A stretch of 54,169 nt of DNA from Rhizaria sp. SCN 62-66 (GCA_001724265.1 MEDY01000192.1:1-54169), one strand, 5' to 3'; numbered from the stretch's first letter, positions 4,489 to 40,100 are shown. Program-made: numbers and translations. The notes: generated from the letters alone by a model not told the origin.

Positions 4489-5392
4489 AGTGCGTGCTTG
4501 CAGCAAGGGTAACTTTTGCTTGGGTGTTCTTGGTTTTTTGAGCACAGAGCAAACATGGCTGTAGGAGCACTCGTAATTATCAAAGTAGTCGTAGCAGTAA
4601 TCACAATTAGTATCAGTGAGTAAAAAAGCAGCAGTAGCGCTTGCACCGTTTGTTTTTGTTTGATTCTTGTTTGGAACAAGAGCAACGTCAAGGCTGCCGT
4701 CTCTCTGTTGCTTTCTGCTTGCTTGTATCATCTGTCTCTATCTTACGGGGGAGGTACCTTGCTTGTTAGGATAAGTCAGTGCGTTTTATAGTGCGTATTT
4801 GTACGCGTAATGTATTTTGTGTGTGTATGTATTAGTAATAACAACATCTGCACAGTTGTCGTCGCCGTGTTACTCGGCGCTGTTGCTGTGCTTAAAGACA
4901 CGACCACTTGTTGTCGTCGCTGTCTCTGTCTGTGCGTGTTTGGGAAGTTTTTTTTCTGTCATTCTTGCTATGCTCTTGCGCAACAAGGGGTTGATGACAA
5001 CACGTATGCAGGACGGAGCAGCTGTGACAGCAGCAGGTATCTTGGGGTTGAGAGACTACAACAGAAGCAAGCAATGGTGTGGTTCCTCCAAGTGGCGGTT
5101 GTGGTACAAATAATGAGAAGAATAAATAGTCTGTCGTGTCGTGGAGACTCTGCAGATCAAATCATAAACAACGTTTTAAGACATCAAATCATTGCATTGT
5201 TTATTTTATTTAATTATATCTCACACAATCATCGTTTGTCGCTCCATATCTTGTTCCAAGCTGCCCTTCGGCCCACACGTTTAGGCAACTTCGTCAAACT
5301 TTGATTCCCCTTGCTCTCACGCCTCACAACCACACTGCAGCAACACATAGTTTCGGAAACGCGCTTGTTGACTGCGTTGGCGTTGTGGTACG

Positions 5393-8077: not shown

Positions 8078-8346
8078 TAGTGGCAACGTGGAGGTGTATT
8101 TCTTCGTCATTCTTCCATTGTTAAGATATTTAAGGTTTACCGTTACAAAGTCACAGTTTACAAAGCCGTTAATTACAAAGAACATTAAGCTTATTTTCTT
8201 TATTTTATCATAATACACGAATGTGTAAGATCTAAAAACATTATTATTCGTCGGTTATTGTCATTAATCGAGAGACAACACGTTTATATCATATCCGCAA
8301 GTCGCAATCAAGATTGCAACGTGTTCGTTCGTCCACCCATTCTCAT

Positions 8347-11300
8347 TCACTGGTGCGAGGCCGTCTTCTTGAGCTTCTCATGGAGGCGCCCCAGCTCAGC
8401 CTCGAGCGCCACAGGCCTGCCGGCCCTGGTGGGCACCGTGGGCACGACGTTCAGCCGCCCGGGCTCTGCGCTCGTGCCTGCGTTGGGGTGATCGATCGTG
8501 ATCACGCGCGGCCGCCCGTCGGCCGGCTTGCGGAACACTGCGTCAGGCCACTGCAGCGGCTTCACCTGCAAAAGCTCACGCAGCTCGCGCGCGCCCGGGT
8601 CCGAAGGCAGGACTGTAAGCGTCGCGGCGGCGTTAAGCGCGTCCAGCTGCGCCAGAGAGGGCGTCGGCACAGGCGCGTCCCCCAGCAGACCGGCCGAGCC
8701 AGAGCCTGAGCTGTGTGGCTGCAGCAGAGCTAGCGAGCGTGCGCTCACGCCGCTGCCGCCGCTGCTGTTGCTCGCGGACGAGCCCTCTGCCGCTGCGGCG
8801 GCCGCGGCGGCGCGGCGGCCTGTGTTGCGCGCGCGCTGCGCGTTCGCGGCTGCGAACGCCGACGACGCCGGGGCCTGATACAGCCCCGCGAAGGACAGCG
8901 CGCTCGACGGCGGGCCGGGGCGGTAGTTGGACGAGAACGAGCCGTAGTCGTCCTCGCCGCCGTCGCCGTCTTCGTCATCGTCGCCGTCGCGCCTGCTGCT
9001 GCCGCCGCCGCGGTTGTCCGTCGTTGTGAGTGCCGTGCTGGCGGGAGCGACCGGAACGAGCGCGCGGGCGTTCCCGCCGCTGGAGCTGGAAGCTGCGGCT
9101 GCGGCAGCGGCGGAGGCGGCGGCGGCGGACGCGGCTGCGGTGGCCCGGGTGAGACCGCGCGGGGGCGCGCCGGCCTGCTGCTGTTGTTGTGCCGGAGGTG
9201 AGTAGAGCGAGTTGGCAAAGATTGCGGTGGCATAGTCGTCGCGACGCTCGATCTCGTAAGCGTCCATCTCATCATCGCCGTCGTCCTCTTCGTCATTGTC
9301 GCTGTAGCCAGCGGAGCCAGAGGCAGCGCCACCAGTCTTGGACGTGCGAGCATTGTTGTTACTCGCGGCCGTCGCAGGCGCAGAAGAAGCTGCAGTCGCA
9401 GGCTTGGCTTCAGCGAAGGCCTCAGGGTTCGCTGCCGCGTTGGTAGCTGCGTCCGAGTCTTGCTGCTGTTGTTGCAGGTGCTTGCTGTACTTAGTGAGCA
9501 CGCTGCGCAGCCGCTCAGATGATGTCAACCCGGCAGCGCTGTCAAGCGCGCTCCTGCGCGCCCTCGCGCCCGCAGCCTCGCGCTGCTCCTCTTCCTCGAT
9601 CAGCCGCAGCTCCTCCATGTCAACAGCCGCGCTGGAGCGGCCACGCGTCGCCGCCGCCGCTGCAGCCGCGGCGTCGCGCACTTCGTCCTCATTCTCCGAG
9701 GCGCTCACATCACACCAGCTGCGCGGCGCAGAGGACTCCCTCCGCGCCGCCGCCGCCGCCGTCGCAGTGGCCGCTGCGAGGTTCGCGGCCACGGCGGCGC
9801 GGCGGCGCGCGCGGCTCTGCGCGGTGCCGGACTGGCTCGTCGCCACAGACGCCGCGGCTTCGGCGGCGGCGGCGGCGGCGGCGCTGGCGGCGGAGGCAGC
9901 GGCCGCCGTCGCCGCGGTGGCCTTGGCGCGCGGGCAGAGCGCAAGATCCCACGGCACGTAGTGGCGGCAGCGCGGGTGCGAGCACGCGATGGAGCCGTCA
10001 GCGGCGCGCTCCTCCCCGTCCTCGGCGCACTTGCCGCCGACAACAGACCTGGAGACTGTGCAGCGAGCGCTGTCCTTGCGCTCAGCGGATGAGGACACAG
10101 CGGTGGAAGCGGCGGCGGTGAGCTTGTGGGTGTCGACGTCGTCATCATCGTCCGCGGCGTTGTTGTTCGCGTAGAGGTTCGACAGGAACGTCTTGTCTGC
10201 TGCGGCGCCCGCAGTCTTGGCCTTGGCGGCCGCGCTGGCTGGTGCGGTCAAGCTGGCGAACCCGCTCAAGCCACTGACGACCGATGCGGCGATGTTGTTC
10301 GCGCGCGCCCGCGCCGCGGCCGCCGCACGGTTGCGCCGGGCCTTGTTCTCCTCCTCTTCCTCCTCGGCGGCCAGCACGCGCATCTGCCTCTCCGCCGCGC
10401 GCACGCGCCTGCGCAGCCGCGCGGCGGCGCCATGCATGTGCTCGGTCCCGCGCAGCCTCAGCAGCAGCGCGGGCACGTCCAGCGTGGGGCGCACACCGAG
10501 CTCGCCGACGAGCTGCCCCACGCGCGACCACACGCGCACTTGTCCGTTGTCCGACGCCGTGGCGAACGCCTGCAAGTGCGGCGCGGCGACCACGGCGGTG
10601 GGCAGGCCGCGCGCGTGGGGCCGCCACGAGTGGATCAGGCGGAACAGCGGACGCACGTGCGCGCGCAGAGACGAAACCACTGCGTTGGACAGCGGGAGTG
10701 CGATAGAGCTGCCACTAATAGGGCTGGTGCTAGCATTGGAGTTAGAGCTGGATGAGGCGTTGGCGTCAGTGTTGGCGTCCGCGCTAGACGTTGCCGTCGT
10801 GGCCGCAGCACCAGCGGCGCCAGCTGCAGTTGCACTGGCATCGGCTGAACTGCCGCTACTGCCACTGTTGCTGCTGTTGGCAGCACCGGGAGCAGAAGTT
10901 GCGGTAGTCCCAGCAGTCGCCGCCGCTGCCGCCGCCGCTGCCGCCGCCGCCGCCGCCGTCGTCGCGGCCGCAGCTGCGACAATGGCGGGGCATCCCGCGG
11001 CCGCCGCAGCCGCTGCGGGGCCCAACGCGCTCTCCACCGCAGCCGTCGCTGTTGTGGCAATGCCGGTCACTTCGAACGCGGTCGCGCTCGCACCGGGCGC
11101 CAGATCGCGCGCGATGCCGCGCCCGGCCTGACTCGCGCCAGCGGCAGCAGCGGCTGCAGCGGCGGCGGCGGCCGCGGCGGCAGCGGCGCGGGACTGTTTA
11201 CCGGCGGCCGCGCGCACCGGCACAAGCGGCGCGCGCGCGAGCGCGGCAGCAACGCCGAGCGCAAGCGGCGAGCATGAGTACGTGTGTCCGCCGTTGTGCG

Positions 11301-14300
11301 CGACGGTGGGCGGCACGGTCGCGGGCTTGGCCTCGAGCAGCGCCGCAACGTCGTCGAGCGCGAAGACGCGTGCGTTTCCGCTGGCAGACACCACGAGCAG
11401 GTGCGTGTCGCGGGTAAGAGACGCCGCGGCGGCCACGGCGGCGGTCGCCGACACAGCGCCAGATCTAGCACCCGCGCCTGCGCCCGCACCCGTGCCCGCG
11501 CCCGCGCGCGCACCGCTGCTGTTGCTGTTAGACTTCGCAGCGGAGTGGAGCGCAGGGCCTGAGCCAGAGGCAGGAACGGTGTGGCGCGGGCAGACGGCAA
11601 AACGCGCGGCGTCGGGCGAGGGCGCAAAGCGCATCAGGGGGGGCTGCGGCTCAGTCTTCTTCTCGCCCTTGCCGCCAGACACGGCTGCGGCGGAGGCCGC
11701 GGCGGCAGCGGCGGCGGCTGCGGCGGCAGCGGCAGCGGCGGCGGAACCCGCTCCCGTGGCCGCGGCTGCTGCTGCTGCTGCGGCTGCTGCTGCAGCGGCG
11801 GAGGCAGCAGCAGCGGCGGCAGCAGCGGCGGCGCCCGTGCCGGTGCCTGCAGAAGGGTCGGTGACGCTGGTGTCGGGCTCACCGCCGACAGAGGCGAGGA
11901 TGGCCATGTTGGTCACGGCGTCGGGCGCGGCGCGCGCGAGCGTGTGCAGCAGCGTGAGCGAGCCCGTGACGTAGCGCAGCACGTGGATGTCACCGTCGTC
12001 AGTGCCCGCAAAGAGCAGCGTCACAGTGTCGCCGGCACCAGCGGTCGCGGAGACCGACGCAGCCGCGGAGGCGGAGGTCGCTGTCCCGCCGATGTGGCTT
12101 ACACTCGCGTTGTTGGCGCTGGCATTACCGTTTGCGTTGGCGGGGGCAGCGGGGAGACGGAGGGACGCAAACAGCATGCTCGTGACCGACGCAGCGCCAG
12201 GCGAGACGGCCAGGACTGACGACTGAGCGCCGCCAGTGCTGCCGATACTAATGCTGCCCGCGCCACCAGCAGCCACACTGCCAGCGGTCGCGTTGCTGGC
12301 GCCGTTCGCAGACTGGGCCGCGCAGTCGCCAGCAGCAACGCCAGCGCTAGCGCTACTATTGCTGTTACTGTTCGCGTTCGCAGCAGCGGAGCCGGAGGTA
12401 ACAGTCGTGAGCATCGGCGGCGCAAGCCCAGCGCTACTGCCCGCGCCCACACTGCCAGTGCTGTTGCTGTTCGCAGCCGCAGCAGCGCTGAGCGGGTCAC
12501 CGGGCAGCCAAGGGCACTTGGCCGTGCGCGCGCGCCCTGGCGCCGCGGCGACACGAGCCATGCGCGCGCCGCGCACGACGGCCTCGGCCTCCGCGGGCGT
12601 GAGAGAAGGCGGGAGCGCGATTGAGGCGATAACGCGCGTGGATTCTTGGTTCCACAGCACGACCTCGCCGGAGCTGGTGCCCGTGGCGAGCGCGGAGCCC
12701 AGCGCGGCGACCGAGGTGATGTCGACGCCGGGCGCCAGACGCGCGTGCTCGAAGGGCTGCGCGGTGGCGGGCGCGCTGGGGTCAGGCCAGCGCAGCACGG
12801 GGAGGTCCCAGCCCGTGCCCACGAGCGTGTGGTCCGTGCGCGGCAGGTGCAGCAGCGCAGCAACCTCCTTGTTGTTGATGGGTACGTAGTCGTGGACGAG
12901 CCCGCCGTTGTGGATGTTCCACATGCACACGCAGCCGGAGCGGAAACCCGTGATCAAACGCCGTCCGCGCACGTCGACGCACACCGCGGTGACCGGGGAG
13001 CCGCCGCGCGAGCCGTTGCCGCCGCCAGCGCCGGAGCCGCCGCCGGAGCTGCGCGAGACCACGACGGCGCTCGTGCCAACAGAGGCCGAGGCAGAGCCGG
13101 CGCCCGCGGAGGTGGCCGCGCCCGACGCGCCGCTGCGCCCGTCACCGCCCTGTTGCGGCGGCGCTGCGGTGAACTCAAACACCGCGCGGCCCGTCTCGAG
13201 CGACCACAAGTGCACGACGCCGTCCGCGCCGACCGAGAGCAGCTGGTTAAACAGCGGCGAGTGGCCGAGCCCGACGACGAGCGACGCGTGCGCAGGGAAC
13301 CCCGTGCGCGCGCGGTTGCCTGGCGCGACTTGCGTGGGCCAGAGGCGGAAGCGCGGGCCGGCAGTGATGAGCCGTTGGTTCTCGTAGTCAAACGCAGCAG
13401 ACGTGACTGCGTTGACGGGCGCGTAGTCATGCGAGTCGACCGACACGGAGAGACAGCGCATGGTGCGGATGTCAAACACGCGGGTGCGCTTGTCGGCGCA
13501 CACGGCGAGCAACTGGTGGCACGGCTCGTTGGCGATGACTTGCACGACGCGCGACCCCGTGGGCAGCGAGCCGACAGTGGTGCCCAAGTGCGGATCCCAC
13601 AACGAGATGTGGTTGCTGAAGCCGACGGACGCGATCAGACGCCGCGTCGCCGCAAACGTGTAGATCCCCTTGCGGTGCCCGCCGCTGCCGCCGCTGCCGC
13701 CACCCGGCGCCGCCGCGTGGGGCTGCGCCCCAGCGCGCGCGAGGCCGCCGGCGCCGCCGCCGAGGATGCTGGGCAGACCCGCGGCCGCGGCGGCCGCAGC
13801 GGAGGGCGAGGCGGAGCCGCTGGACCCGGGTCCGTTAGAAAGCCCAGATGCCGCGTAACCCGACCCCATGCCGAGCCCCGTGCTGTTGCTGTTCAGCCCG
13901 CCGCCGTGGCCGTAGCTATTCGCGTTCATGTTCGCGTTGGCAGTGCTGGCGTTGGCGCCGAGAAAGCGGATGCCTTCGCCGAGGCGGTGCACCGGCGCAA
14001 CAGCGAGCAGCCCGTCAGTGCCGCACGACACGAACGCGGCCAGGTGCGGGACGTACTGGATCTTGCTGATGACGTGGCCGGGGTGCGGCGCGTACGACAG
14101 AAGCTGGTGGCCCGCCAGACCGGGCGCGGCCAGCGGTTCGTTGTACAGAGACGCCAGCAAACCGCGACCGCCCTCGTTGTTGACGTAGCCGGCGCCGACG
14201 ATCGCGCTGTTGTTGCTGTAGTAGCTGCTGCTGCCGCTGCCCGGAGCAAAGGCGGCCGCGGACGAAAGCACGCCAACGTCATCACCGTCAGCGGCGGCCA

Positions 14301-17300
14301 GAGTGCGTCGGTAGTACGACACGAACGAGCCGACGCCCGTGGTGTCGTTGCGCTCGTCCTCGTCCACGTCCGGACCAAGCCCGCTGGCGCCGCCGAGCCG
14401 GCCTGCGCTGGCAGCGGCGTCGGGCGCGCTGCCAATGGCGCTGCCGCCGAGGCCCTGCGCAAACAGTCCCGCGCTGCCGTTGCTGATCGACAGCGCGGTA
14501 TTCCGCCCACCGGCGCTCGCGCCAGCGCCGCTGAGCGCGGCGGCGTTGGCGCTGGCGCTGTTGGTGATGACAGGCACTGCGCTAGTATGCGCGGGCGCGC
14601 ACGGCAGTCCGCGCGACGCGAGGCCGTACACAGTCACCGTGCCAGTCACGTCGCCCGCTATGAGCGCGTTGTCGACCGTGTCGAGCGCGACTGTGAGCTG
14701 CGGCGTTGTGAACAGATCCGTCAAGTGGCACCCAGTGCCGGCGCGCGGGCCTGACGTGGGGCCGTGCGAGAACAGATACGTGAAGCGGTTTTGACCGGCG
14801 ACGACGATCTGCCGCCCGCTGCGCCAGTAGCACAGCGCGGAGTGCGGCAAACCAGGCGGGCGCGCGGAGGACCGGCCGCCGCCTCTCGACTGCCCGCGGT
14901 GCCCGCGGTGGCTGCCGCGGCCGGAGGTGGAAGCGCGAGACTCGATGTCACTGCCGCTGTCGCTGTTGCTGTGGCCGTTGGTGTTTTGCGCATCGCCGTC
15001 GCCGTCGCCGTAGTAGCCGAGGCTGTTGTGTGCGCCGTCGTTGTTGTCGTTCTCGCTGTTGTCACTGCCAGCGTTGCCATCGTCGCTCTTTCCGACGAAT
15101 CCACGAGCCTTGCTACTGTTGCTGTTGCTGCTACTGTTGGGACCGCGGAATGCACTGGGCAACGCCGCCGCCGCGGTGGCGGATAGGCGCGCGCGCCCGG
15201 GATCGACGACGCGGCCGCGGCGGAACGTGGGCTCGCCACGGCCCTTCGACGAGTGAACACCCTTAGTCGACGACAACGAGGAGGAACCCTTAGATCGCGC
15301 CGCGCCGCCCTTGGACCGCGCCGTCTCAGCGCCAGAGGCCGTCATACGCGCAGTCTTACCGGCATCGCCGTCGTCGCCACTGCTATAATTGTTCGTAAAC
15401 TCACTGTCGCTACCGTTGTTGTTGCTATTGTAGTAGCCGTCATGGTCTGAGCCCGCGCCGCCCGAGTCAGATCCGCTTTCATAGCCGCCCCAGCGCGTGC
15501 GCCGGCCGCGCGGCGCCGACGTCCCGGCGCTCAGCGCCGCCGCCGCGCGCGCCGCGGCCGCCGCCGCGCCGCTGCCACCGCCGCCGCTGCCGGTGTGGTA
15601 CGCACTCGCGGCCGGCGGGGGCGCACCGCGCTGCAGTCCGAGCGCGGTCTCCCGCGCGCGCGCAAGCACGACGGCGCGCAGATCGTCCACGGTGACGCCG
15701 CGCGCGCTGCTGCTGCTGGCCGTGGCGCCACCCGTGGAGCCAGGGTCGGAGAGCAGCGCGCGCGGGCCAATCAACGCTGCGGCGGCGTCGACCAGGGACG
15801 CAGCGGCGCGGCCGCCGCCGCTTGCGTTGCCGTTGCCGCCGAGGCCCGCGCCGGCGCCGTTGCCGGCCGCGAAGTGGTGCGCGCCGGCGCCGCGAGCGCT
15901 GCTAGTGCCGCCGCTGCCGCCGCCGCTGCTGCCAGGGCCGCCGCCGCGCCCGCGCGCCGCCGCGACGGCCGCCGCGCGCGCCGATGCGCCGCCGAGGTGG
16001 GCGTAGCGCGGGCGCGAGTACGACGCCGAGGCGAGCGAGCCAGCGGCAGCGGCGGCGGCGGCGGCGGCGGAGGACGACGCCGAGGACTGCTGCAGCAAGT
16101 ACTGGCTACCGTCGTAGGTGTTGCTGGCGCTCGCCGCGCCAGAGCCGGCGCCGGTCGTGGCCGTGCCCGCGGTGGGAAACGCGGACCGCAGTACGGCCTG
16201 CGCGGCGGCGGAGGACGACGGCAGCGCCGCGGCGGTCGCAAGAGTGGGGCCCTTGCGGCGGCCGCGGCTGGAGAAGCCGCCGCTGATCGAAGACAGCGCT
16301 TTGGGGTTGTTCGCGTTCGCATTATTCAGGCTGTTACTGTTGTTGATAGAGGGCAGGGCAAGGAGGTCGTACTCGCTCAGATGCTCGTCGATCTGGCTCT
16401 GCTCCAGTGCCGCCGCGGCCGCCGCAGCCGCGCCACCGGCGCCCGTGTTGGCGTTGCCGTCGCCGTCGTCATCGCTGTCGCCAGCTGTCGGCACGGCGCT
16501 GCTCCAACGCGCCTTGCGCCCGCGCCGCCCGCTGCCCGCACCGCCGCCGGCGTTGACGAGTGCGCCACCGCCGCCGCCGAGCCCGCCCGCGAGGGAGAAC
16601 TGCGCGATAGCCTGGCCGGCCGCGGTGACGGCGTGCTGTGACGCGCTCGACGACGCCCCCGCGCCGCTGCCGCTGCCGCCCGTGCCGGCGACGGCGGCAG
16701 TCGCAGCGGCGTAGGTCTGCGCGAGATCGGCCAGTCCATGCACCGGCAGCGTGGTCGCGTAGACGGCCGAAGCAGGGCCGGGCACGGTGTGCCAGAGGTG
16801 GATGTTGTGGTCAGAAGTCGAGAAGAGATACAGCGCGCCGGCGGCACCAGGCGCGCGCGCGACGGAGCCTGCGGGTGTAGTGAGTGAGCCCACGGTCGGG
16901 CCGACACCGATGCTGCCGCCGGCGTTGACTGCGGACGCGTTGGGCGCGGCGGCCGTCGCAGCGGCAGCGGCCGCGGACGCCAGACTCGCGCCGCCAGCGC
17001 TACCGCCAGCAGTCGCCGGCGCGGCCGCAGTCGCGGGCGTGCCGCCGCTCGCACCAGCTGCGGATGCGCCGCTGCCACTGCTGCTGTTGCTGGCGCCAGC
17101 GGAGGTGCCACCGATAGCCTGCGTGATCGCAAGCGCGGCGACGTCTGCAGTGAGGCCCGTGACGGTGGCCGGCAGCGCAGCGAGCGAGCCGGGCGCAGCT
17201 GCAGCAGCGCCGGCGCCAGCGGCCCCGTGGCTGCCAGTGCCCGCGGCCGCGTTGGCGGCGCCTGTGTCCGTGGACGGCACGACGAGCACACGCGTGATGA

Positions 17301-18963
17301 CGCCGCCGCCGCCGCGCCGGTCCGCGCGCTGCGGCGGGCGCGGGTCCTCGCGCAGTGAAAATGCGCCGCGCGCCGACACGCGCTGTGCTTCGAAGGCGAC
17401 TTCACGGTGCACGAAGGACAGGTACTCGATCCAGGTGAGGGAGCCGTCGTCGTTGGCGTCGATCTTGAGAAACAGCGCGTCCAAGTCCTCCGGCGGCATC
17501 GATAACAGCGAAGACAGGAGCGCAGTGAACTCGGGCCGGCGCAGACCGCTGTCGCGCGGACGGCGCTGCCAGATCCGGCCCAGGTCCGAGAGGGACTCGA
17601 TCACGCTCAGGTGGTTGTTGCTGTTGACGTTGCCTCCGCTGCCACTGTTAGTATTGCTATTACTGCCAGTGGTCGCAATGAGAGCCTTGGAGTCGCTCGA
17701 CGCGTTCGCCGTGTTGCTGTCGCCACTGGAACCGTAGGACGAAGAGGGCAGGAACGCGGCCGCAGCGGCCTCCGCAGCCGCAGCGATCGCAGCAGTGTCG
17801 CTGCCGCCGTCACCGTAAGCACTCGCCCCTGCGGACGCGTTGTTGCTGTTGAAGCTGCTGCTCTCGAACAAAGCCAGTTCGCTGTTGGCACCGTGCGCGG
17901 GGATGGCAATGCCGTCTGCGGCGGCGAGGGCGGCGGCCTCTTCCTCGGCCGCAGCGGCCGCGGCGCCCGCAGCCGCTGTCGCAGCAGCGCCTTTCTTTTT
18001 CCCAGCCCGCCCGTGACCGTGACCGCGGCCGTTACCGAGGCTGTTGCCGTGGTTGCTGCCGTGTTGGGCAGCGTCGGCGGCGCTGTAGTTGCCGGGGCCG
18101 AGCGCCAGCGCACGCTGCCGCGCGCGTTTCGCCGCGATTGCAGCGCCGGCGTTGCGGAGCTATGCGATTTGGATCGCCATCGCACTCGGAGCAGCCGCCG
18201 CAGCAGAAACCGCGGTTGTATTCGGCGCCGCGGTGGCGCCGGCGCCCGGAGTCAAGGGCTGCAGCTGCGACGGCTGCCGCTGCAGCTGCTGCTGTGGATT
18301 GGCGGCGTTGACGTTGATGTCGCTGCCGTCCTGGTGCTTGCGGATGGCGCGGTGGGCGTCGACGAGCGAGGTTTTGCTGTGTGAAGCGAGGAGTTTGACG
18401 CCGTGCCATGCGGCCCACACGCGCTCGGACGCGCCGGAGCCCGTGAGGCCGTACTGCGCGAGCGCGACGGCGCGCGGGTCACGCTCAGCCTGTGCAGCAG
18501 CTGTTTCTGACGCAGCCGTTGCAGCTCCGGTCGAGGCGAGACGCTGCGAGCCCTGCAGCTCGCCAGACGCAGAGAACGAGCCCGCGGGCGCCGCAACGCT
18601 GCTGGGCAACAACGCGGGGTTCGCCGGGTACTGCTGCGACTGGCCGTACGAAGCTTGAGACGCGTGCGAAGGGTTTGACGAGTGGAGCGCGGTGCGCAGC
18701 ATCTGCGCCCACTGGTTTGGCGACTGGCGCGCGGGGATGTCGCGGCCGAGCATCGCGGCCATGCGCTGCGGAAGAGACTCGCGCCGGGCCGCGTCGGACG
18801 TCATAAACGAGCCTGATGAGCCCGCGCTGTGGGCCGTGGCGCTGCTGCTCGAGCTAGCGCTTGCTGAGGCAGCGGGGTCTAGTGGGGGAATGATTGGGGA
18901 GAGCAGCGACGGGGACGGCGAGCCCGAGTGGCTCCGGGAAGAGTCCGCCGGCGCGCGACTCAT
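8347..18963 (-). CDS. giant EF-hand + WD40 protein (CFAP337/WDR49/WDR64/EFCAB8-like), 3538 codons including one in-frame TAG at 18160-18162
   Basis: EF-hand LDALFLKIDANDDGSLTWIEYLSF; WD40 repeats GHRKGIYTF...IASVGFSNHISLWDP, QLLAVCADKRTRVFDIRTMRCL, RRLITGFRSGCVCMWN. ORFs 18160-18963 and 8347-17871 are in the same frame, and I translated the gap (LRNAGAAIAAK...NSELALFESS) stop-free. Terminal stop is TGA. Confidence 0.8.
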
Positions 18964-22537: not shown

Positions 22538-23402
22538 ATGTCTCTGGTCGCGCTTCCGTCTGCCCAGTCCTCGGCCCTGGTCGCCTCCGCGGGCTCCGCG
22601 CTCTCAGCCACGCGCACCAGTACGCTCCCCGTGCCCACGCTGCACCTTGCGGGCCACTCCGGCGCCGTTAACGCCGCCGCATTTTCTCCCGACGGCACGT
22701 GGCTCGCCACGGGAGGCCAGGACTGCAACATCCTCCTCTGGGACCTCTCCCCCTCTACCAACCCTGCTACCGCGGCCGCGGCGGGCCCCTCGTCGTGCGT
22801 GAACACGGCCGTGCTGTCGGGGCACCGCGCGGACGTGCTGCAGCTTGCCTGGACGCCCGACTCGGCGCTCATCGCATCCGCCGCGGCCGACGGAGGCGCC
22901 TTTTGGGACGCCGAGACCGCGACTCGCGTTAAGCGGCTCCGGCACAGGCTCACGGTCACTTCTGTCGCCACTGCACGGTCGGGCCCCGCGATGGCGCTCA
23001 CAGGCAGCGACGACAAGACGGCCGCGCTCTGGGAGCCCCGTTGCAAGGAGGCAACTGCTGTGTTTAACTGCCCTTACCAGGTCACTGCTGTCGCACTCAC
23101 TCCGGATGTACGTCGCATATTTCTCTCTCGTATCAACGTTAATCAACAAAAGTATTCAGTTTAACACGATGCCATTTTTATTGCATTTTTAAATTTTTAG
23201 ATTTTATTGCGATTTACGTTGACCTTGATCTCTATATCTCACTTTCTATGTCACGCTTTTGTTGTTGTGATTCGCTTGGCGTATCGCAGGCTGCTTTTGC
23301 GTTCACGGGTGGTCTCGACGAGGTGATCCGCTGCTGGGACCCCCGCCGCACCGAAAAGCCCGTCTACACCCTCCAGGTACGTTCTTCAATCACTCAAACA
23401 AC

Positions 23403-23462
<60 letters not shown>

Positions 23463-27223: not shown

Positions 27224-29341
27224 TTACAGCTCCTCTGTTTCATCGTCAGCTTGCACTTCAGCTTCAGTCTCGTCATCAGCATCAACAACATTAGCATCAG
27301 CCTGAGTCGAAACGTGGGTCTCAACCCTGGTCTCCGCGAGCGCTGTCGCGACTGCTTGAAACAACGCGAGTTTGCTTTGCTTCGAGATACCAGCGGCGCG
27401 CGCAGAAGTTGACGCGAGCACAAACACGCGTAGCAGCGGCCGCGGCACAAAGCTAGCACTCGCGCTGCTGTTAGCGTTATTATTGTCGGTGCTATGATAG
27501 TGCGAGCGAATGAGTTGAGACCAATGCGAAAAGAGCGACGTAAACGACGTGTGCTCAAAGTTGCTTGCACTGTGACCACACTCACAGCCTTGCTCATGAG
27601 CTCCGATGCCGTCAACAGTGTTCCTCGTTTGATCGTTGTTCCTTGTGCTCGTGTCGCAACGATTGCTGTTGTTAACGCGATCGCTGTTGCTGATGGCACT
27701 TGCCAGCAATTGCCTCAGCTGGTTATGCTGTTGACTATGAGTACGGCACCACGTCTGCGGCCGCACAGCAATCGCACTCACACAGCTGTTGTCCACACTG
27801 TCGTTTTCGTTTGGGCTTGCGCCTAAGGCTGCGAGTACATCTTGTTGCTGCTGCTGCTGCTGCAGTTGCTGAGGCTGCTGCTGTTGCTGCTGCAGTTGCC
27901 GCTGTTGTAGCGGTGCTGGTGTGATGATTTGGCGCAGCAGCACGGGGCAGGACCCAAGCGCCGCTGCTGCCCAGCACAGCGGCGCCTCGCCGAAAGCTAA
28001 GCCGCCACTTTTAGTTTCGCCGCCGCGTGTTTGCGCGTGCTTAGGACACGGTTTGTGCCGGAGAGCCCACAGTAAACACTGCGCCAGCGCGGCCTCTGCG
28101 TATGCGATAGCCTGTGCAGTAGAAGCGTCACTGTTCGAAGTTGCACCAGTAACAGCAGCATCAGCAGAGGCAGCATAGGCTGACGCGGAGGAAGCCGATG
28201 CAACAGCAGCAGCAGCGGTGGCAGCATAAGTTGCGGCTTGTGTTGTTGTTGCTGTTGTTGAATCAACAACGGCGGCCGCCTCTTGCTCCCATTTCTCAGT
28301 AACGCGCATATCAAAGGCGGCATGACTCGGCTGACTGTGAGCAGTCGCAGCTGCAGTAGAAGTCGCAACGCGACTATAGTTGTGGCAGCCGTTGTGACAG
28401 TCACAAGCACAGCCGACAACAGTCTCTTTGTCACTCAACGCGGGCGTGTTTTTGCTATTCGTGCTGTTGCTGCTTGCGCTTTTCACTTGCTTCTGCTGCC
28501 TGTCACTCGCCCTCGTGTTAACGCACAGTGCATCGAAGATCTCTTTGCCATTAAACGCAATGATCCTAACCGGTGATAAAGTTATACACGACAGCTCGAG
28601 TGTGAGAGATTGAGAATAAGACAAAACAAGCCCATACTATTACCAAGAACAAAGAGTGACAACACAGACATGTTATTTTAGTTTCGATGTTGTGTGCAAG
28701 AATATTCATCATATTGGCTCGTACCTTGGCAGGACAGCGCAGAGTTTGCCTTTAAGCTTTGCAGCGCCGTCGCGCCTCTCTTGCCTCTCCAAGTCATCCG
28801 ACCCCGCGCTCGGCCTGTCCATTAAGTTGCACACCCCAACGTTCGCAACGTGGGGCGCGCGCAGATGGCGCTCGCGGCGGCAAGCGGGTGGGAGCAGCCC
28901 GGTTTCAGAGATCAGAGGCCAAAAAGCGTTTGTCGGACCTGCGTAAGGGTAGCTTTTCTCTGCTGACGTGAGGCCTGGGTTGATGCCGACAATCACTAAG
29001 TCAAGCCGAGGAAGTAGCGCGTCGGGGACAGGAAGAGCAGGCTCGACAGTAGGTGAGAACGGCTCTGCCGCAGTTGAAGTCGCGACTGGAGTTGCTGCCG
29101 CTGCTGTGCTGGTCGTTGCACGTGCAGTTTCAGCTTTCGCAGATGGAGAAACAAACACAAACGCGGATAGAGCCTCTAGCGCGGTCTGCGCGGTGCGCGG
29201 AAGCTGCACAAGCTCTGCAGCCTGCGTCTCATCTGCGGACGGTGGCACGAGAGTGCGCTTCGGGGTTTGAGAGGCTGGCGGACGTGATGATACTGACAGC
29301 CAGAGAGACTTGCGCGGAGGCTGGCTTTGCGAATCACTCAT
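27224..29341 (-). CDS. G/T(U) mismatch-specific DNA glycosylase (TDG/MUG family); exons 29341-28725, 28565-27224
   Basis: LVIVGINPGLTSA..YAGPTNAFW, NLMDRPSAGSDDL, LPR|IIAFNGKEIF across a phase-2 GTACG...TTAG intron, and VFVLASTSAR (MPSSSAR equivalent). Stop is TAA. Confidence 0.88.
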
Positions 29342-30971: not shown

Positions 30972-33900
30972 TCAGTCGGTCCACACGGCCCCGGTGTAGC
31001 CCAGGTCACGCGCCGCCGCCGCCGCGGCCTCGTCGCCAAGCCCCAGCACACGGCCGCGCATGTCGCTGCCAGTCACTGTCTCGGGCAGGTACGCCGACAG
31101 CGGGCTCGTCAGCGGGTTGAGTCCGCCGTGCACGCTGTTAGCCATCGCGGCCGCCACGGCGCCGGCGTTGGCCCCACCGGCGCGCCCGCGACCGCCGAAG
31201 AGCCCCGGTCGCCCCGCGGCCGCCCCGCCAGTCTTCTTGCCGCCGCCGCTGGCGTGGGCAGCGGAGGAGGCGCGGAGCGCAGCGGCGCCCGCGGAGGCCG
31301 GCGTGGGGGTGGGCAGCGCGCCCTTAGTGTGTAGCACGTGCAACAGCACGCGGAGCTCCTTCTCGCTCATGCGCTCGCCCAGCGTGCGCACTGCGGCGGC
31401 CAGGGCCGCGCGGGAGACGGCGCCGCCGGCGAGCAAAGCTTCTGCGGCCTCGATCTCGGCGTCGGCGTTATCATGAGACTAAAAAAAAAGAAGAAAACAA
31501 CAAAATCGGAAATGAATATCTTATGAGTTCAATAGTAAGTCTAGTAAAAATATTGTAGAAACTTAAGCACGGAATACATTTATCAATTTTGTGATATATC
31601 GCGAGGAAACTTCGAATAAGCGTACCTGTGTCATGGCCGCCCCGAGCACGCCGACCGCGCCCTCAACAGCGCCGGGCGCGATGCCGAACACTGGCCTGTG
31701 GTTGGCCAGGAGACGGATGACGTCCCGCAGCCCCACAGTCTCCTCGCGCACGCCCCCGCGCGTCGGCACGGGTGTGATACGCCGCGCCGCGCGCGCAGTT
31801 GCCGCCGCGAGCAAGGCCGCGTCACTCCCACTCCCGTTGCTGCTGTTGCTAATGTTGTTGTTTGCAGCCTGAGGCGAGATGAACGCGTCCCACATGACCT
31901 CGGCGTGGATCTCCTCGACCTGCGCCTCGCTGGGGTAAAACCCGAGCGTGCGCATCATCACCACGGCCTCAGCCAGCGGGATGCGGCCCGTCACACGGCG
32001 CTCCCCGCTCTTGTGCAGGCCGTCTGCGCGCAGCTGCGAGTGGTGGAACGCGTCGACGAGCTCTTCGTACACCTCCGCAGCCGTCACAGCGCCGCCCGAC
32101 GCGCGCGCCGCAGCGGCAGAGGCCGAGCTGGAGCCCAGCGCTAGCCCGCCGTCGGCGGCGGCGCCGTCGGTGATGAGTTGCAAGTACGAGTCCGTCACGG
32201 AGTCGCCGGTGACCGTTGCGCTGTAGCTCGCGCTGCTGCTGTTGGCGGTGCTGCTGGCGGCGAGCGCGAGGGACGCGTCAAGCGCGGCAGTGTTGACCCC
32301 CCAGAGGTTCACCGTGCGGTCCCGGCCGCCCGCAGTGAGCACGAAGCGGCCGTCACACGTCGGCGCCAGCGCAGTGAGCGCACCGGGGTGCGCAAGCATG
32401 GCCATCGACCGCTCGGGATCACCGGTCAGCGGCAGCTTCATCAAACCGATGATCTTGCTGTCGCACGCGTACACCACGTAGCTCGACGCCGCGAAGCGCC
32501 GCTGCGGCCCGCCCGCGCCGGCAGCAGCGCCGGAGACCGAGGCCGAGGCCGAGGCGGGGACGCGCGTGGGCAGCGACACGAGGCGCGTGACGGGCCCGCC
32601 GTAGGCGGGAGCGAGCGTGACCTTGCGGCAGATGAGATGCTTGAACGCGCTCAGCGGGCACACCGCCGTCGCGCTGAGCCCCGAACCGCTGTTGTTGGCG
32701 CCGCCAGAGGCCGAGGCAGAGGACTGGGCCTCGGCGACAAGCGCGCGCAGCGCCGACGACGGCTCACCGTTGAACCCGGCGTCCGCCGCGTCGTCGCCGC
32801 TCGCGCCGCCGTTCGCACTGCTGTCGCAGCCGCTGCTGGTGACGAGCGCGGGGTCGGAGCACAGCAGCGGCGCCCACCAGAAGGGCTGCGCGCCGCCGCG
32901 GTTGAACGCCGCCGCCTGCTCCGTCGGCCGCATGAGTGCCGTGTTCCCGGCGGCGGCACCCGCAGCGGCACCCGTGGCCCCGTGTGCCCCCGCGCTGGCG
33001 GCCTTGCGCGCGCCGCCCGGCGTGCGGAACGGAGAGTTCATCATGTTTGCCGTCGACGCGGGCCCGTGGTGCGGGGTGTCGAGCCCACGGTCGCCGCCGC
33101 CGCCGCCACCCAGCGCCACGCCCGTCGCAGTGCCCGGCGCGCCGCCGCTCAGCATGCGGGACGCGGCCGGCGTGGCGAGGACGGAGCCCACGCCGCCCGC
33201 GGTGCCGATCGAGCCTGCGCCGCCCGCGGTGAGTGGGACAGACCCCGCGGCGGCGGCAGCGGCGGCGGCGGCAGCGGCGGCGGCAGCGGCGGCGGCAATG
33301 TGCTGCGACGGGAACGCCGTTTGCTGGTGGAAAAGCTTGAGTTTGTATCCTTCCGTGGAGACGACGACGCAGTCGCTCTGCACCAAAAGGTCTCCGGACT
33401 CGCAGTGTGATAGTACCGAGGCTGGGGGCAGCGCGCCGCCCGCGCCCGGGTGGATCACGCCGCCACTCGCCGTCACCATCACACCGCCACCGCCACTGCT
33501 GCTGCTGTTGGTGTTGGCGCCGGCGAGAGAGGCGGCGGCTCGGCGGAACTCGGCCGCTGTGGCCACGACACCGGGCAGCGGCAGCATTGCGACTGCAGCG
33601 TCGGTCTGGTCCACCGCGCTCGCGGCCGCAACGAGCACGCCGTCCTTGATACTCGCGCGCGCCACGTCATACTCGACGAGGCGCCGGTCCGCGCCGAGCG
33701 AGAGCAGGCGCGGGGCGGCGGCGCGGTAGGGCTCCCCGCGCGCGGGCAGCAGGGGGGCCACGGCGGCGGCCGCCAGCGCCAGCGCGCGCGCGGCCTGCTG
33801 CGCGGCGGCGCTCGAGCCCGAGGTCGCGGCGGCGAGCGCGGCGGCGACGGAGGACGCCGAGGCCGCGCCCGAGATGGAAGCGGCCGACTGCGGCGGCGGC

Positions 33901-36565
33901 TGGAGGTGACGCGGCGGGTGCGTGGCGTGGAAGCGGCGCAGGCGCGCGGCCTCGGCGTCGAACTGTGCCGCCACGCGGTCGGGCGTGCGTGAGAGGTCGA
34001 CGGCGCCCGGAACAAAGCGCAGGTCAGTGATGGAGGAGTAGTGGCCCTTGTTGCTGCCGATGAACACCCACTCGAGCTGTCGGTCCAGGCGCTCGTCCTA
34101 AAGCGGTTCGATGAGCGGTTTGATAAGACACAAAGAAATAATCAGATATGACACAAATGAGCAGTATTCAAAAATACAATTAAAAAAAATTAAAAAAGGG
34201 TCATTTTAGCAAGGCTGCTTTTTAGCGATAAAATTGACGTTTGAAGATGTTTGAAGTCAAATAACAGCGAGTAGCCTTTGTTTTGCTGTTACCGTACCTG
34301 GTGTGTGTAGCGGAAGAGCGAAATGTACTGCGCAGAGTCGGCGACGGCCAGCCACTGCTCGTCCTTGGAGAATGCCACGTGTGTAATCGCGCCGGTGCAG
34401 ACCGCGAACGACTGGAACACCTTGAGCGGCTCCACTACAAGTGCGCCGCCCTCGCCGTTCGCCCCGTTATCGCCGTCCGTGGTCAGCCCGGGGACGGCGG
34501 CAGCGAGCGACGTAACGAGCTCGAGCGCGCCCGAGGCCATGCCGACGGCGATGACGCGCCCGGACGGCGAGAAGCGCACGGTGCTAATCCGCGCCGCAGC
34601 AACCGCGGCAGCAGCGGCGGCCGACGACGAGGCCGACGCTGCCGACGAGCCGCCGCTGACGTTGCTGCCGTTCGTGGCGCTGGAGTCGCCCTGGAGGTAG
34701 CCGCTGGCGCCCGCGGTGGCGGCGGCCGCGGCGGCCGTCTTGGCGCTGGGCAGCACGAGCGACGACACGAGCGCGGTTTTCCCGCCGTCAGCGCCGCTGC
34801 CGCTGCCGGCGTTGGCGTTGTTGACGGTCTTGCCGTTGCGTGCCGCGTGCGTGCGCGAGCGCGTCTTGGAGTTAGCCGCCGCGGCCGCGGCCGCCGCGGC
34901 CTCGAGCACTGCGGCGGCGGCGGCGGACGTCGCCGTGACCGCGGCGGCCGCGATAGAGCTCGAGTGCGTCGGCGGCGGCGGGTTCAGTGACGCGCCGACT
35001 AGGGACCGGGAGGCAAGGAGCTCGCGGTCTTCAACGTCCCACAGCTGCAGCGTGCCGGCCGCGGTAGCGGCAACAAAGACGGGCAGCGACGGGTGCGTGT
35101 CCAGCGCGATGACGTCGCCGTCGAAGCCTTGGACAACCAGGCGGCCCTGTTATCGAAGAGTAGATTTAAGCACAAAGATATGAGTGAATAAGGACGAAAA
35201 TTATGCATAAACATTGTTAAAATAGATAAAATCTATTTTAACAATAGATAAAATGTGAGCAATGACGGTTAATTTCACGGTTCAAGAATATAGTTGCGCT
35301 AGGGATCGTACCTGACGGGCGGCCGAGTCGTCGCCTTCACCGTCGCCGCCAAGCGCGTCGAGCTGTTGCGCATCCAACCGCACGATTTTACCGTGCGCAG
35401 TCGCTACCAGCAGCTCTGGCACAAGGAACTCCGTGATGGTCGCGGCCGCGGCGGCGGACGTGGCGCCAGTCTTGTCCCCGGCGCCCGCGGCGGCGGCGGC
35501 GGCGGCGGCGAGCGCGGGCACAGTGTTCTTGTCTGCGAACGACGTGGCGACGATGGGGCCCGCAGCGAGGTCTTCGAACCACGCCACGATGCGGAACTGG
35601 AAGTCGAAGAAACGTACAGCGCCGTCTTGGCAGCCACAGACGAGGTAGCGGTCGAGCACGGTCGAAACGATGTTGATGCCAGAGTCAGTGCATAATTCCA
35701 GCACCTTGATCGGCTCGCGGCCAGCGGTTTGGACAAGCTCTGACACGGGGTAGTCCCACTGCACGACCAGACCGGTTGAAGTCGCGGTGCACGCCTTCGT
35801 GGTGTATGGGAAAAACGTCGTTTGCGTCATGGCGCCGAGACGCTTCGACCCCGGTGCGCGCGGCGCCTTGGTGGGGTGTAGCGCGGTGAGGCGGTCGTCC
35901 GCGCCCCAGGACCAGAAGATCACCTTGGAGAGCCCGTTGGTGACGATGTCGCGCACGTCGACAGGGTTAAAGCGCACGCAGTGCTGGAACTCGCCGCCGT
36001 CGACGACGCCGCGCACTACGGGCAGCCCCGACGTCGCGGCGGCCGCGGCGGCGGCGGCGGCGGAGGAAGTGGCGAGCGCGGGCGGCGACGAGGTCCACTA
36101 CCAGACCGCGATTTCCTGGCGCGGGAAGGCGTGTGAGAGCGCGACGATAAACATGGCGTCGGCGGAGAGGTCTAGCGCGCACACGCCCGACGGGAACGGG
36201 TTGGGGATGATCTTGACGGGCGTGGCCTTGAGGGCGTCCCAGACTACGATCATCGACTCGTTGCCGCAGTCGGCTGTCACGATCCAGCGTTTGTCCGTGG
36301 AGACGCATGCCGCCGTGATGGGGTTGCAGTGGCCCTGCAGCAGCGACTGCTTGTCTGTGGCCGTGTCCAGGATCACGCCCGTGTGCGCAGCGACGTAGAA
36401 GACGGCGTTACGCTCGGCTGTGACGAGGCTGATGGCGCCGCCGGGGATCTGCGAGTTGAAGCCGAAAGACCAGCGCAGGTTTAGCGCGTTGGCGTCTGCC
36501 ACAGAGCCGGGGCTAGGGCCTGCGGCAGAGGCGCCGCCGGTGGCGGAGGCGTCGACCAGAGACAT
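30972..36565 (-). CDS. CFAP251: cilia/flagella-associated protein 251 (WDR66); exons 36565-35312, 35146-34298, 34097-31626, 31478-30972; in-frame TAG at 36098-36100
   Basis: LNLRWSFGFN, LLQGHCNPIT..VSTDKRWIVTADCG, GAVRFFDFQFRIVAWFE, LLSLGADRRLVEYD, RKVTLAPAYGGP, GLMKLPLTGDP...AHPG, MRTLGFYPSEAQVEEI, RLLANHRPVFG and GERMSEKEL. Three phase-0 CAG|GTACG introns. Terminal stop is TGA. Confidence 0.9.
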
Positions 36566-37152
36566 CCTTTGTTTCCCTCACTGAAGTGCAAAACAACAAC
36601 ACTTGTGGGCGGACGTGTGAAGGTGTGCTGCGAGTGAGTGCAGCGGAATGAGAAAGAAGGGACGCGCAAAGGGAGCTTGCAGGAAGCGGAAGAGACGCAG
36701 TGCGCTAGCGGCTGGGCCAATCCACAGGAAATAGGCTCACGAGCTGGTGCGCACGGAGAGGTTGAGTCGAAACCTGGAGACAGAGAAGCGTTAGGGCAAA
36801 AAGGGCTTTGTAAGCAGATCGTTCTGAGGAGATAGTTGAGGACTGAAACAATGCCGTTAAAATTTCCAAACAGAATTTATAACGTTATTTTCAATATTGC
36901 ATCGATGTCTTATTCTGATGGCCTTGTGAGGCTCTGATGGCAGCTTTTGATCGTTTCCGTTTCCGTCTTTTCGAAACGGTCGGCTCTGTCTGATCTCCGA
37001 GTGCGGTTCTTAAAAAGTCGACCGACCGACTCATCTGTGGTGTTCTCAACGGGCGGCAATCTGTGATTCAAATTTGACGGCTATAACTTCTGTCAAACGC
37101 GATTTTTAAATCGGAACCACAAACTATCCTTTATAAACAGTTATACTTCACA

Positions 37153-40100
37153 ATGAGCACTGACGAAGTCGGAACCGTCTTTGGCACAGGTACGTTTTCT
37201 TTCCCCTTCAACAGCATCTTCCAACTTTGACTCTTTTTCAGCAAGATCATACTGCGTGATTTAAACCTGTAATGGTTTGCAATGATAGCATGATTTTCTG
37301 TTAGATCATCTTCATTTCTACCCTCTGGACACGATTTTATTCTTCTCGCTTGCTTCCCCAACAGTTTGGCAGAGACCCTTTGTTGACGTGTTCAAGCAGG
37401 CGGGCCTGTACGACAACCACAACGTGCAGCTCGTCGGCGATGCCGTGCTCGTGCTTGATTCGCAGCTCGGTAAGCGGGTCGTGCGTCTCCGGGGTCCGGT
37501 TTCCGCGACCAACTATGTCCGGCTTCCGCACCCTTATCGCAAGCCCGTGCCGGCCGCGGCTGGCTCGATCGTGGCCTCCGTGTCTCCCGCAGCAGGCTCG
37601 GTTCCCTCTGCCGGCAGCGGCCCGTCCCTTGGCCTGACGGGCGAGTACTGCTACCTACAGCTGCGCGCAGTCGGCGAGAAGGTCTTCACGTTCCACCTTG
37701 ATCTCATCACTGAGGAGGGCCCTCCCGTGCGCCTGTCGTTCAGCAACATGTTCAAGACGTTCAAAACAAGCGGCCACACCTACTGCTTCCCGTGCCGCAT
37801 CATGTCCACGCGTTGGACCGTCTTCGCGCTGCACTTCCCCTCGATCCTGCGCATGTACTCTACTTACGCCTTTAAGGCGCTTAAGGCCGTCCAGTTCTGC
37901 TCCTCGCTTTTCGTGCGTGGCGTCTTCACTAGCCCCACAAAGTTCACCATCCGCTCGCTCCCGCCCGCGCTCGCGTTGCCCGTGCCGCGCGGCGCGCTCT
38001 GGGCAGAGACCTACGACTGGATCTGGCTTAAACCCGTTCCCGAGGCCGACACCGACGCAGAGAACCCCGACGCAACTGCTGCAACTGCAATTGCGACTGG
38101 GGCAGATGCACCTGATTCTGCTTCTGCTGCATCAACTGCTTCGGCGCCCGGTGTCGTTTCGCGCATGGGCCGCCCCGCCGCCGCCACGGCCGCGATGGCG
38201 GGCGTTCGCGGCGCCGCACGCTCGACAGTCGGCACTGCTGCTAACGGCGGGCTGTCCCACGGTGTGTATGACATCGAGGCCGACGGACCTCTCGGCGATG
38301 TTCTGGACGCAGACGCTGCGGCTGCCGAGGAGCGCGCCGCGGCCGCCGCCGACGCCGCCAACGCCGCCGCAGCGGCCGCGACGACTGCGCTTGCGAAGGC
38401 CCGCGGTGTGCTTGCGCGCAAGAACGCGGCTGCCTCGAGTGCAAACACTGGCAGTAGCAACAGCAATGCAAACGCAGAGTCCGCGCCCGCTAGAGCGCGC
38501 TCCACCGCGAGTACCGCGACTGACAGCTCTAGCAAAGGCGATGCCAATGCCACAGGTAACAGTTCTGGCAGCGTCGCGAACGAGTTGTTCGGCCCCAGCG
38601 GCGCGGGCGCCGTCGTGCACCCGGATCCGCTGCTGCAGCTGAAGCAAGTGATCGGTTTTACTCCGCGCGTCAAGGGACGCAACGTGGCCTGGGCGGCCGA
38701 CGGGCAGCAGGTACTGTTTACCTCCCGCCAGCTCGTTATCGCCATGGACACCAAGACCGGTCGCCAGCGGTACTTAGACGGCCACACTGCGCCCGTCTGC
38801 ACGCTCGCTCTCTCAGCGCACGGGCTGTTGGCCACCGGACAGGAGGGCCGCTTCCCGCTCATCCGCCTCTGGGACTTTGAGACGATGGAGCTCCCGGAGG
38901 TTCCTCTCGAGTTTCAGCAGGACCCCACGGGTGCCGCGGCCGCCTTCGACGCGCTCTCCGCGGGCGACGTCGGCGTATCCGGCGCCGGTGCAGGCGCGGG
39001 CAGCGGTGGTGACGCGATGTCGGGCATGCTGTCGCCGTACGCACTCGCGGCCGCGGGGCGGTACGCGCAGCTTATCCGCGCGCAACAGGCCCGTTTCCAG
39101 CACTTGCACCCGCTCGCGCCGTACGGGGCCGCGCTGCAGGCCGCCGCGCAGACGCTTACGGCTGTCTCACACGCGGGCGCGCCCTCGGCGGCGGCCGCGG
39201 CGGCGTTCCGCGCGCTGCCCGCGACGGGCGACGCGGTGTGCCTGACCACGGTCGCGTGTGATTTGGCGTCGCTGCACTCCGTTGCGTTCGGACCCTGCTT
39301 CAACCGCGAGACGCAGCTCATGGCTGCATGCGGTGCCGTACGTTCTATCATTGTATAATGAAGCGCATGCTCTTCATCGCATTGGAGAACTCATTAAAGT
39401 ATTTTATATGTCATTTATTTTCACGATTTTCTTGGTCTGTTTTTGTTTTGCCCGCGTTTTATTGTAGGATGAGTTCAACCGTCCAGTGCTGACTGTGTGG
39501 GACATCGCTGGCGTCCGCACTCTCCACCCCGTCACTGGCGAGCCCGCTGCTCCGACCGTGGTCGCGCGTCAGATCTCCGAGTACCCGGTGAACCGCATGA
39601 AGTTTAACCCGTACCCGAATGATAAGTGCATGCTTGTGACCGTGGGCCAGAGCAACATTCGCTTCTGGCGTATGAAGAACGGCCATCTCCCTGTATCTTC
39701 AGTGCCGCTTAACGAGCACGCGCGGCAAAACTTCACCGATTTTGCCTTTGAGGCTGGTTATGGTGACGGCGACGCGACGAAGAAGCGCATGTACGTTTCC
39801 ACAGCGTCGGGAGCAGTGTTCCAGGTCAACATGCAAGACCGCCGGCTGGAGGCCATCTTCCAGCTCCACTCTGGGCCCATATACTCTATCGCCATCAACG
39901 AAGGCTTCTGCGTCACGGGCGCTGGCGACCGGTACCTGCGCGTGTGGCCGCTGGACTTCAGCGACTATTATCTTCAGGCGCAGCACCCCAGCGCCGTCAT
40001 TGCGGGCGACATCTCTCCCGATGGACTCAAGGTCGCAGTCGCCACAGAGGCGGGCTGTCTTGGCGTGCTTGATCTCGCGTCCACGCAGTACCAGACCAAG

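Follow-up and report, generated by a model that had tools for sequence, protein, structure and literature searches.

Does a TAG codon in the middle of a conserved ciliary gene mean that the organism carrying it translates UAG? The question is raised by a stretch of 54,169 nucleotides assigned to Rhizaria sp. SCN 62-66 (GCA_001724265.1, MEDY01000192.1:1-54169; the window, by which we mean this whole stretch), whose minus strand carries a predicted gene for the axonemal WD40 protein CFAP251. A first-pass annotation, made from the sequence alone, had placed an in-frame TAG at 36098-36100 within the motif QEIAVW(stop)WT of this gene and had proposed that it is read as an amino acid. The minus strand indeed reads cag gaa atc gcg gtc tgg TAG tgg acc at this site, with the TAG running from 36100 to 36098. 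From the gene model, the homologues, public DNA and RNA contigs and the terminators of the window, we consider it probable that UAG is decoded as sense in this organism.

An in-frame TAG at a conserved position of CFAP251

The minus-strand frame from 36577 to 35282 is open except for this single TAG, and it has an ATG at 36565. The rebuilt four-exon gene comprises 5082 nt (1693 codons and the closing TGA), with the TAG at codon 156 as its sole internal stop; the codon count, the otherwise intact exons and the exon-1 donor at 35311 given in the first-pass annotation were all recovered. The features of the gene are as follows.

30972-36565, minus strand: CFAP251 (FAP251/WDR66-type) gene, with exons 36565-35312, 35146-34298, 34097-31626 and 31478-30972 and the TGA at 30974-30972
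36098-36100, minus strand: in-frame TAG, CFAP251 codon 156, two residues past the predicted strand QEIAV and between two conserved Trp residues
35147-35311, minus strand: intron 1, 165 nt, GC 0.31, cag/GTACG...ACAG, the positive control for spliced RNA in run X7
34098-34297, minus strand: intron 2, 200 nt, within an AT-rich stretch (GC 0.35) and resting on its AG/GTACG...TTTAG boundaries
31479-31625, minus strand: intron 3, 147 nt, its joint 31478/31626 confirmed in X7 RNA contigs

Two of the three introns are backed by spliced RNA contigs of X7 (joints 35145/35311 and 31478/31626), and these RNA-confirmed introns have a GC content of 0.29-0.31, compared to ~0.72 in the exons. All three open with AG/GTACG and have a GC content of ~0.29-0.35, a strong compositional signature of the organism.

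The protein encoded by exon 1 matched 1,744 representative proteins at E values up to 0.001, the best of them with 54% identity. Its best match among solved structures was Chlamydomonas-type FAP251 (8glv_LY, E 2.3e-57; query residues 28-412 against FAP251 residues 4-369), further structure matches named CFAP251 were chains from 9e5c, 9y6s, 8j07 and 9d2f, and the named database matches were oomycete proteins entered as 'Cilia- and flagella-associated protein 251' (37-46% identity). Judged by the homology of its N-terminal beta-propeller, the gene product is a predicted CFAP251/FAP251 (WDR66) axonemal WD40 protein, which would be expected at the base of the radial spoke.

We examined 194 homologues, 147 of which cover the TAG site. 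The motif around this column is Q-x-[IL]-x-[IVL]-W-x-W-T, in which the flanking Trp residues are conserved, and the column itself holds E in 76 homologues, D in 36, A in 14, N in 11, Q in 3, R and K in 2 each, and S, L and H in 1 each. It is therefore polar or charged in 132/147 homologues, in keeping with the expectation of a polar or charged x in W-x-W-T, and E is the commonest residue. In an AlphaFold model built with 40 sequences (pLDDT 82.9, pTM 0.81), the TAG lies two residues beyond the strand at 154-158 (QEIAV), and modelled propeller strands are found on either side of it (48-158 and 188-347). As one propeller spans the TAG site, termination there, or a restart after it, would cut a single propeller.

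Directly after W-x-W-T lies a 17-residue Ala/Ser-rich insertion, SSPPALATSSAAAAAAAAAT (36041-36091), which is absent from 39 aligned homologues, has low confidence in the model and is partly helical by prediction. The residues flanking it on both sides align to homologues.

Seventeen public runs contain the stretch; they belong to 8 studies that sampled bioreactors, wastewater and activated sludge (2015-2025). The contigs of four runs (X3, X4, X6 and X7) were compared over 31000-37200, bearing in mind that contigs can hide minor alleles. The TAG site is covered by three of the four, which come from three studies; none of the X4 contigs listed reaches it, and X4 is hence uninformative there. 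A DNA contig piece of X3, from a different study, covers 36076-36834 with 0 differences, a contig of the poly-A RNA library X6 covers 35819-36209 with 0 differences and 0 gaps, and a contig of the cDNA library X7 covers 36001-36151 with 0 differences. The possibility, raised in the first-pass annotation, that other reads carry CAG or GAG or a second allele at this site found no echo in these data: X3, X6 and X7 all have TAG, no other letter was reported at 36098-36100 in the contigs of the four compared runs, and no alternative copy with a different letter was present among the run contigs at 90% likeness. The TAG-bearing samples are dated 2017, 2024 and 2025. Given that the contigs of three other runs from three studies, each assembled independently, show identical letters, an error of assembly or sequencing in the contig analysed can practically be discounted.

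The X7 contigs splice both of the introns that they cross, and the depth of X7 is zero in the bin inside intron 2 and in the upstream bins, from which it follows that X7 holds spliced, mature CFAP251 RNA. At the contig level (X7 and X6), the UAG is present in the mature CFAP251 mRNA. Variants at 36497, 36501 and 36503, clustered in a 7-base span of the 5′ coding part of CFAP251, are common to X4 and X7, so that at least two haplotypes exist, and X7 still has the TAG. A further change upstream, at 36661, was seen in X4 only; together these differences show strain diversity between samples. The summed contig depth of X6 rises to ~2,400-4,900 at 34519-34932, compared to <20 elsewhere; this peak is likely due to GC-rich low-complexity sequence (GCC/GCG) attracting foreign contigs and not to a peak of expression.

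The UAG could also be lost from the message at the RNA level, through a non-canonical in-frame intron or through RNA editing. The low-complexity insertion of 17 residues right after W-x-W-T and the GT and AG dinucleotides nearby would suit such a removal, but the RNA contigs of X6 and X7 follow the DNA without a break (0 gaps, 0 other letters), and homologues can be aligned on either side of the insertion. Candidate introns running from a GT at 36101 or 36098 to an AG at 36016, 35990 or 35984 would be 86, 112, 118, 83, 109 and 115 nt long. As none of these six lengths is divisible by three, yet the same frame is used on both sides, a canonical in-frame intron is excluded, which agrees with the earlier claim that a local intron would shift the frame. 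The composition points the same way, again as claimed at first: the segment that holds the TAG (35718-36565) has a GC content of 0.68, compared to 0.29-0.35 in the three CFAP251 introns, and it offers no AG/GTACG donor. A canonical intron around the TAG was hence rejected on length as well as on composition, and removal at the RNA level by any route is very unlikely.

A second in-frame TAG and the terminators of the window

We searched the two strands for stop triplets (2,555 in total) flanked on each side by 120 nt of stop-free, coding-like sequence (score above 6). Eight TAG, one TGA and one TAA passed, eight of these ten lying antisense to long genes. On the coding strand, the only stops that passed were the TAGs at 36100 and 18162, with no TGA or TAA among them. 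The second TAG belongs to the following gene.

18160-18162, minus strand: second in-frame TAG, 267 codons past the ATG at 18963; the next in-frame ATG, at 17499, follows 221 codons later
8347-18963, minus strand: long WD40-containing gene of ~3,540 codons, interrupted by the second TAG and ending in the TGA at 8349-8347

A minus-strand open reading frame (ORF), 19161-18160, ends in this TAG, and an ORF of 3,271 codons (18159-8347) continues directly in frame. The context of the codon is GCA TAG CTC CGC, in a GC-rich region with no nearby GT. Using a codon-usage log-likelihood trained on 8,685 codons from seven long ORFs, the frame of the TAG was positive in 7/7 windows around each of the two TAGs, and the other two frames of the same strand were negative except for one window (+4.9). 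The six-frame totals in the TAG frame were +77.3 upstream and +103.0 downstream for the long gene and +62.4 and +78.7 for CFAP251, compared to at most +3.2 in the other frames. No Pfam family was matched by the 267 residues upstream of the second TAG. Both TAGs thus lie inside continuous coding frames, the one in CFAP251 at a conserved position.

The ends of 14 genes were inferred from composition segments together with coding scores, giving seven TAA, seven TGA and no TAG.

TAA gene ends: 167, 4486, 8075, 20339, 26605, 27226 and 30618
TGA gene ends: 2457, 8349, 23966, 25531, 30974, 48199 and 48805

The sequence past each inferred stop is more AT-rich, except at 26605, where the GC content is 0.58 upstream and 0.60 downstream. 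The first-pass annotation had expected that, were UAG an ordinary stop, many genes genome-wide would end in TAG and no further TAG would stand at a conserved position. In the window, none of the 14 inferred terminators is TAG, and a further in-frame TAG was found, although one without homologue support. At the end of the cyclin-domain gene (8075-8080), TAA and TAG stand in tandem; if UAG is sense, that TAG has no role in termination.

Sense decoding of UAG, its rivals and the lineage

The simplest reading that fits all of these results is that UAA and UGA stay terminators and that UAG is translated. We infer that the ribosome inserts an amino acid at the two TAGs, as well as which amino acid this is. 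The original proposal of a sense UAG, with Gln or Glu fitting best, is supported but not proven, the homologue column favouring Glu with Gln possible.

Several observations weigh against this reading. The terminators come from composition-based gene models, of which three are weak (a 55-codon fragment at 2-166, a gene at 25.9-26.6 kb and the low-GC ORF at 27227-28636). Were TAG to end 20-25% of genes as a rule, the probability of 0/14 TAG ends under the standard code would be ~0.02-0.04, which is only mildly unlikely. The second TAG is in low-complexity sequence without homologue support, and X6 includes an unspliced contig over intron 1 (35090-35340), so that X6 contains more than mature RNA. 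ARAGORN detected no tRNA in the 54-kb window, there was no Rfam match, and the window does not encode eRF1. With the codon usage of this organism, 1051 of the 1534 one-step routes to a stop (~69%) give TAG; random nonsense mutation could therefore equally well have made both internal stops TAG, and their identity was rejected as uninformative evidence for reassignment. The use of UAG as sense is also sparse instead of widespread and far below that of all described UAG reassignments, at ~2 per ~13,900 codons and in 2/14 genes, compared to 384 in-frame UAGs in 71 genes in the rhizarian exLh (Panek et al. 2017, PMC5304391) and to internal UAGs in 78-91% of genes in phyllopharyngean ciliates (McGowan et al. 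2024, PMC11687900).

Sparse use, the uninformative identity of the stops and a window devoid of tRNA and eRF1 genes leave a leaky stop or ambiguous decoding as a serious rival. UAG would then still be a stop genome-wide, and the two codons would be read through by near-cognate tRNAs or by a weak suppressor, with less full-length protein as a result. The rarity of the internal TAGs suits this, as does the small size of the window, in which a complete absence of TAG termination could not be demonstrated. The TAG is followed by T at the CFAP251 site and by C at the second site, and C after a stop makes for a leakier context. However, none of the 14 terminators is TAG, the two sites have no common context motif (TGG TAG TGG ACC compared to GCA TAG CTC CGC), and readthrough at codon 156 of an axonemal structural protein would be without known regulatory logic. 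Moreover, the full coding signal persists downstream of both codons, for 1,537 codons in CFAP251 and ~3,270 codons in the long WD40 gene. We regard readthrough of this kind as unlikely, though deserving of attention.

A further rival retains the standard code and takes both TAGs for recent nonsense mutations, or the genes for young pseudogenes, that have reached fixation in a clonal population in wastewater. One substitution, GAG to TAG, suffices to reach the stop from the residue of the relatives, the proportion of one-step nonsense changes that give TAG is high, as noted above, and a minor functional allele could hide behind the contigs. This explanation nevertheless needs 2/14 genes to be hit in one 54-kb contig, with a single lesion each and with neither a frameshift nor another stop along their 1,693 and ~3,540 codons, and the codon bias downstream is undiminished. 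The CFAP251 TAG was present in samples from three different years and three studies, including X7 with its second haplotype, its TAG-bearing transcript is detectable, and no other-letter copy was seen at 90% likeness. Two single-lesion nonsense mutations in 14 genes, otherwise intact, persistent over a decade of samples and found in RNA, would be an unlikely coincidence, and we hold the explanation as a whole to be quite improbable.

If UAG is sense, the column at the CFAP251 site bears on which amino acid it specifies. A quick maximum-likelihood (ML) tree of 53 N-terminal CFAP251 regions places the query in a clade of 18 rows (SH-aLRT 99), and among the 17 others, 14 have E at the site, one has D and two do not cover it. 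GAG is used 220 times in this organism, compared to 25 times for GAA. The majority of E in the column, the E-rich clade and the excess of GAG make a change from GAG to TAG, with UAG=Glu, the most economical; on this single column Glu appears favoured, and Gln (3/147) possible. An ancestral GAG may hence have become TAG at the CFAP251 site, with Glu as the first candidate and Gln as the second. Decoding would call for a tRNA that bears a CUA anticodon, presumably one anticodon change away from tRNA-Glu(CUC) or tRNA-Gln(CUG), and a possible partner would be an eRF1 that recognises UAG poorly. On this scheme, UAG would have gone from gene ends and come back only sparsely as a sense codon.

The query clade in the ML tree consists of metagenome proteins only and is separate from the clade with all named oomycetes; the query branch is long (0.82), and the sampling of named organisms is thin. 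We can suggest only tentatively, and with more doubt than confidence, that this is a non-ciliate wastewater flagellate lineage with an undescribed code, in which UAG=Glu and UAA and UGA are stops, perhaps at an early stage where UAG is off the gene ends and reappears at ~0.15 per 1000 codons. If true, such a code would document, at one moment and in nature, the change of a code by codon capture, and the sparse use of UAG would offer a seldom-seen look at reassignment in an early or minimal stage. In practice, gene callers that apply the standard code will split or truncate the genes of this organism, as they would both genes here.

CFAP251 (minus strand) and a WDR90/POC16-type gene (plus strand) stand head to head at 36565-37380, their starts ~0.6-0.8 kb apart, and with this layout the two ciliary genes may share a divergent promoter. 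The neighbour has a CFA20 domain (37289-39355) followed by propellers up to the TGA at 48199, and it shows that the organism has ciliary genes; a search for homologues of WDR90 at E 1e-30 retrieved none. In an SNRNP40-like WD40 gene, the frame of an exon segment runs into a long poly-Asn tract (AAT/AAC) at 23284-23460, beside an AT-rich stretch; this tract is either coding or the start of an intron. The 470-codon ORF at 27227-28636 (minus strand) has a GC3 of 0.54, a codon bias much weaker than that of its neighbours and no Pfam match; it is possibly not a genuine gene, or possibly one with a different origin. The elongase protein of the window has taxonomically scattered matches, including rotifers and a Lygus hesperus record. 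The latter calls to mind the rhizarian exLh, a contaminant of the transcriptome of this insect (PMC5304391), but no conclusion is drawn from it. An exosome RNase-PH fold was confirmed in the protein atlas. A metagenome scan with the gene at the right edge retrieved only one contig, of 4,133 bases, which matches part of the window at 100% identity and does not extend it.

Comparison with known codes

Nuclear codes that give UAG and UAA different meanings are known from only a handful of lineages (PMC5304391, PMC11687900). Two of these are the rhizarian exLh, with UAG=Leu, and the fornicate Iotanema spirale, with UAG=Gln and, as the title of the paper states, UAA kept as a stop (PMC5304391). Both codes were found through in-frame UAGs at conserved positions, and a tRNA(CUA) arising by one anticodon change was predicted; the terminators of exLh are UAA (56) and UGA (15) only (PMC5304391). 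Under the reading proposed here, this organism is like exLh and Iotanema in being non-ciliate and in having only UAG read as sense. It differs in the amino acid, since the column here favours Glu and not Leu (1/147) or Gln.

In phyllopharyngean ciliates, known from metagenome-derived genomes, UAG means Leu or Gln and UAA is a stop, indeed overwhelmingly the stop that is used (PMC11687900). The UAG-only change, the metagenomic source and the retention of UAA as a stop are common to these ciliates and to the present case. Unlike the ciliate cases, the exons here have a GC content of ~0.72, the introns are 147-200 nt long, TAA and TGA end seven genes each, and no ciliate affinity was seen.

Glu has been assigned to UAG in other codes. 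In peritrich ciliates UAG means Glu, and the ciliate PL0344 reportedly has UAG=Glu and UAA=Lys. In Blastocrithidia nonstop, UAR=Glu (PMC12153298). Glu in these codes matches the column here, but UAA is also reassigned or ambiguous in them, whereas TAA ends 7/14 inferred genes in the window. For the same reason Amoeboaphelidium, with UAR=Gln (PMC5304391), was set aside as a parallel.

The sense decoding proposed here also resembles programmed readthrough, in that a stop is decoded as sense in an organism that perhaps otherwise uses it as a stop. Known cases of programmed readthrough, in animals, fungi and viruses, concern C-terminal extensions or defined contexts. The codons here, in contrast, lie deep in domains or long ORFs and have no common context, and TAG is not among the terminators.

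Literature searches on stramenopiles, on sainouroids other than exLh and on wastewater or metagenomic eukaryotes retrieved only the papers cited here and no report of such a UAG code, the supplements of these papers being outside this scope. A reassignment of UAG alone is already known; if true, the present case would be a new and apparently independent member of this kind, from a non-ciliate, uncultured eukaryote found again and again in wastewater and bioreactors over ten years. UAG=Glu with UAA and UGA both as stops would be an undescribed code table, and codes that separate UAG from UAA bear on how the genetic code can change without killing the cell.

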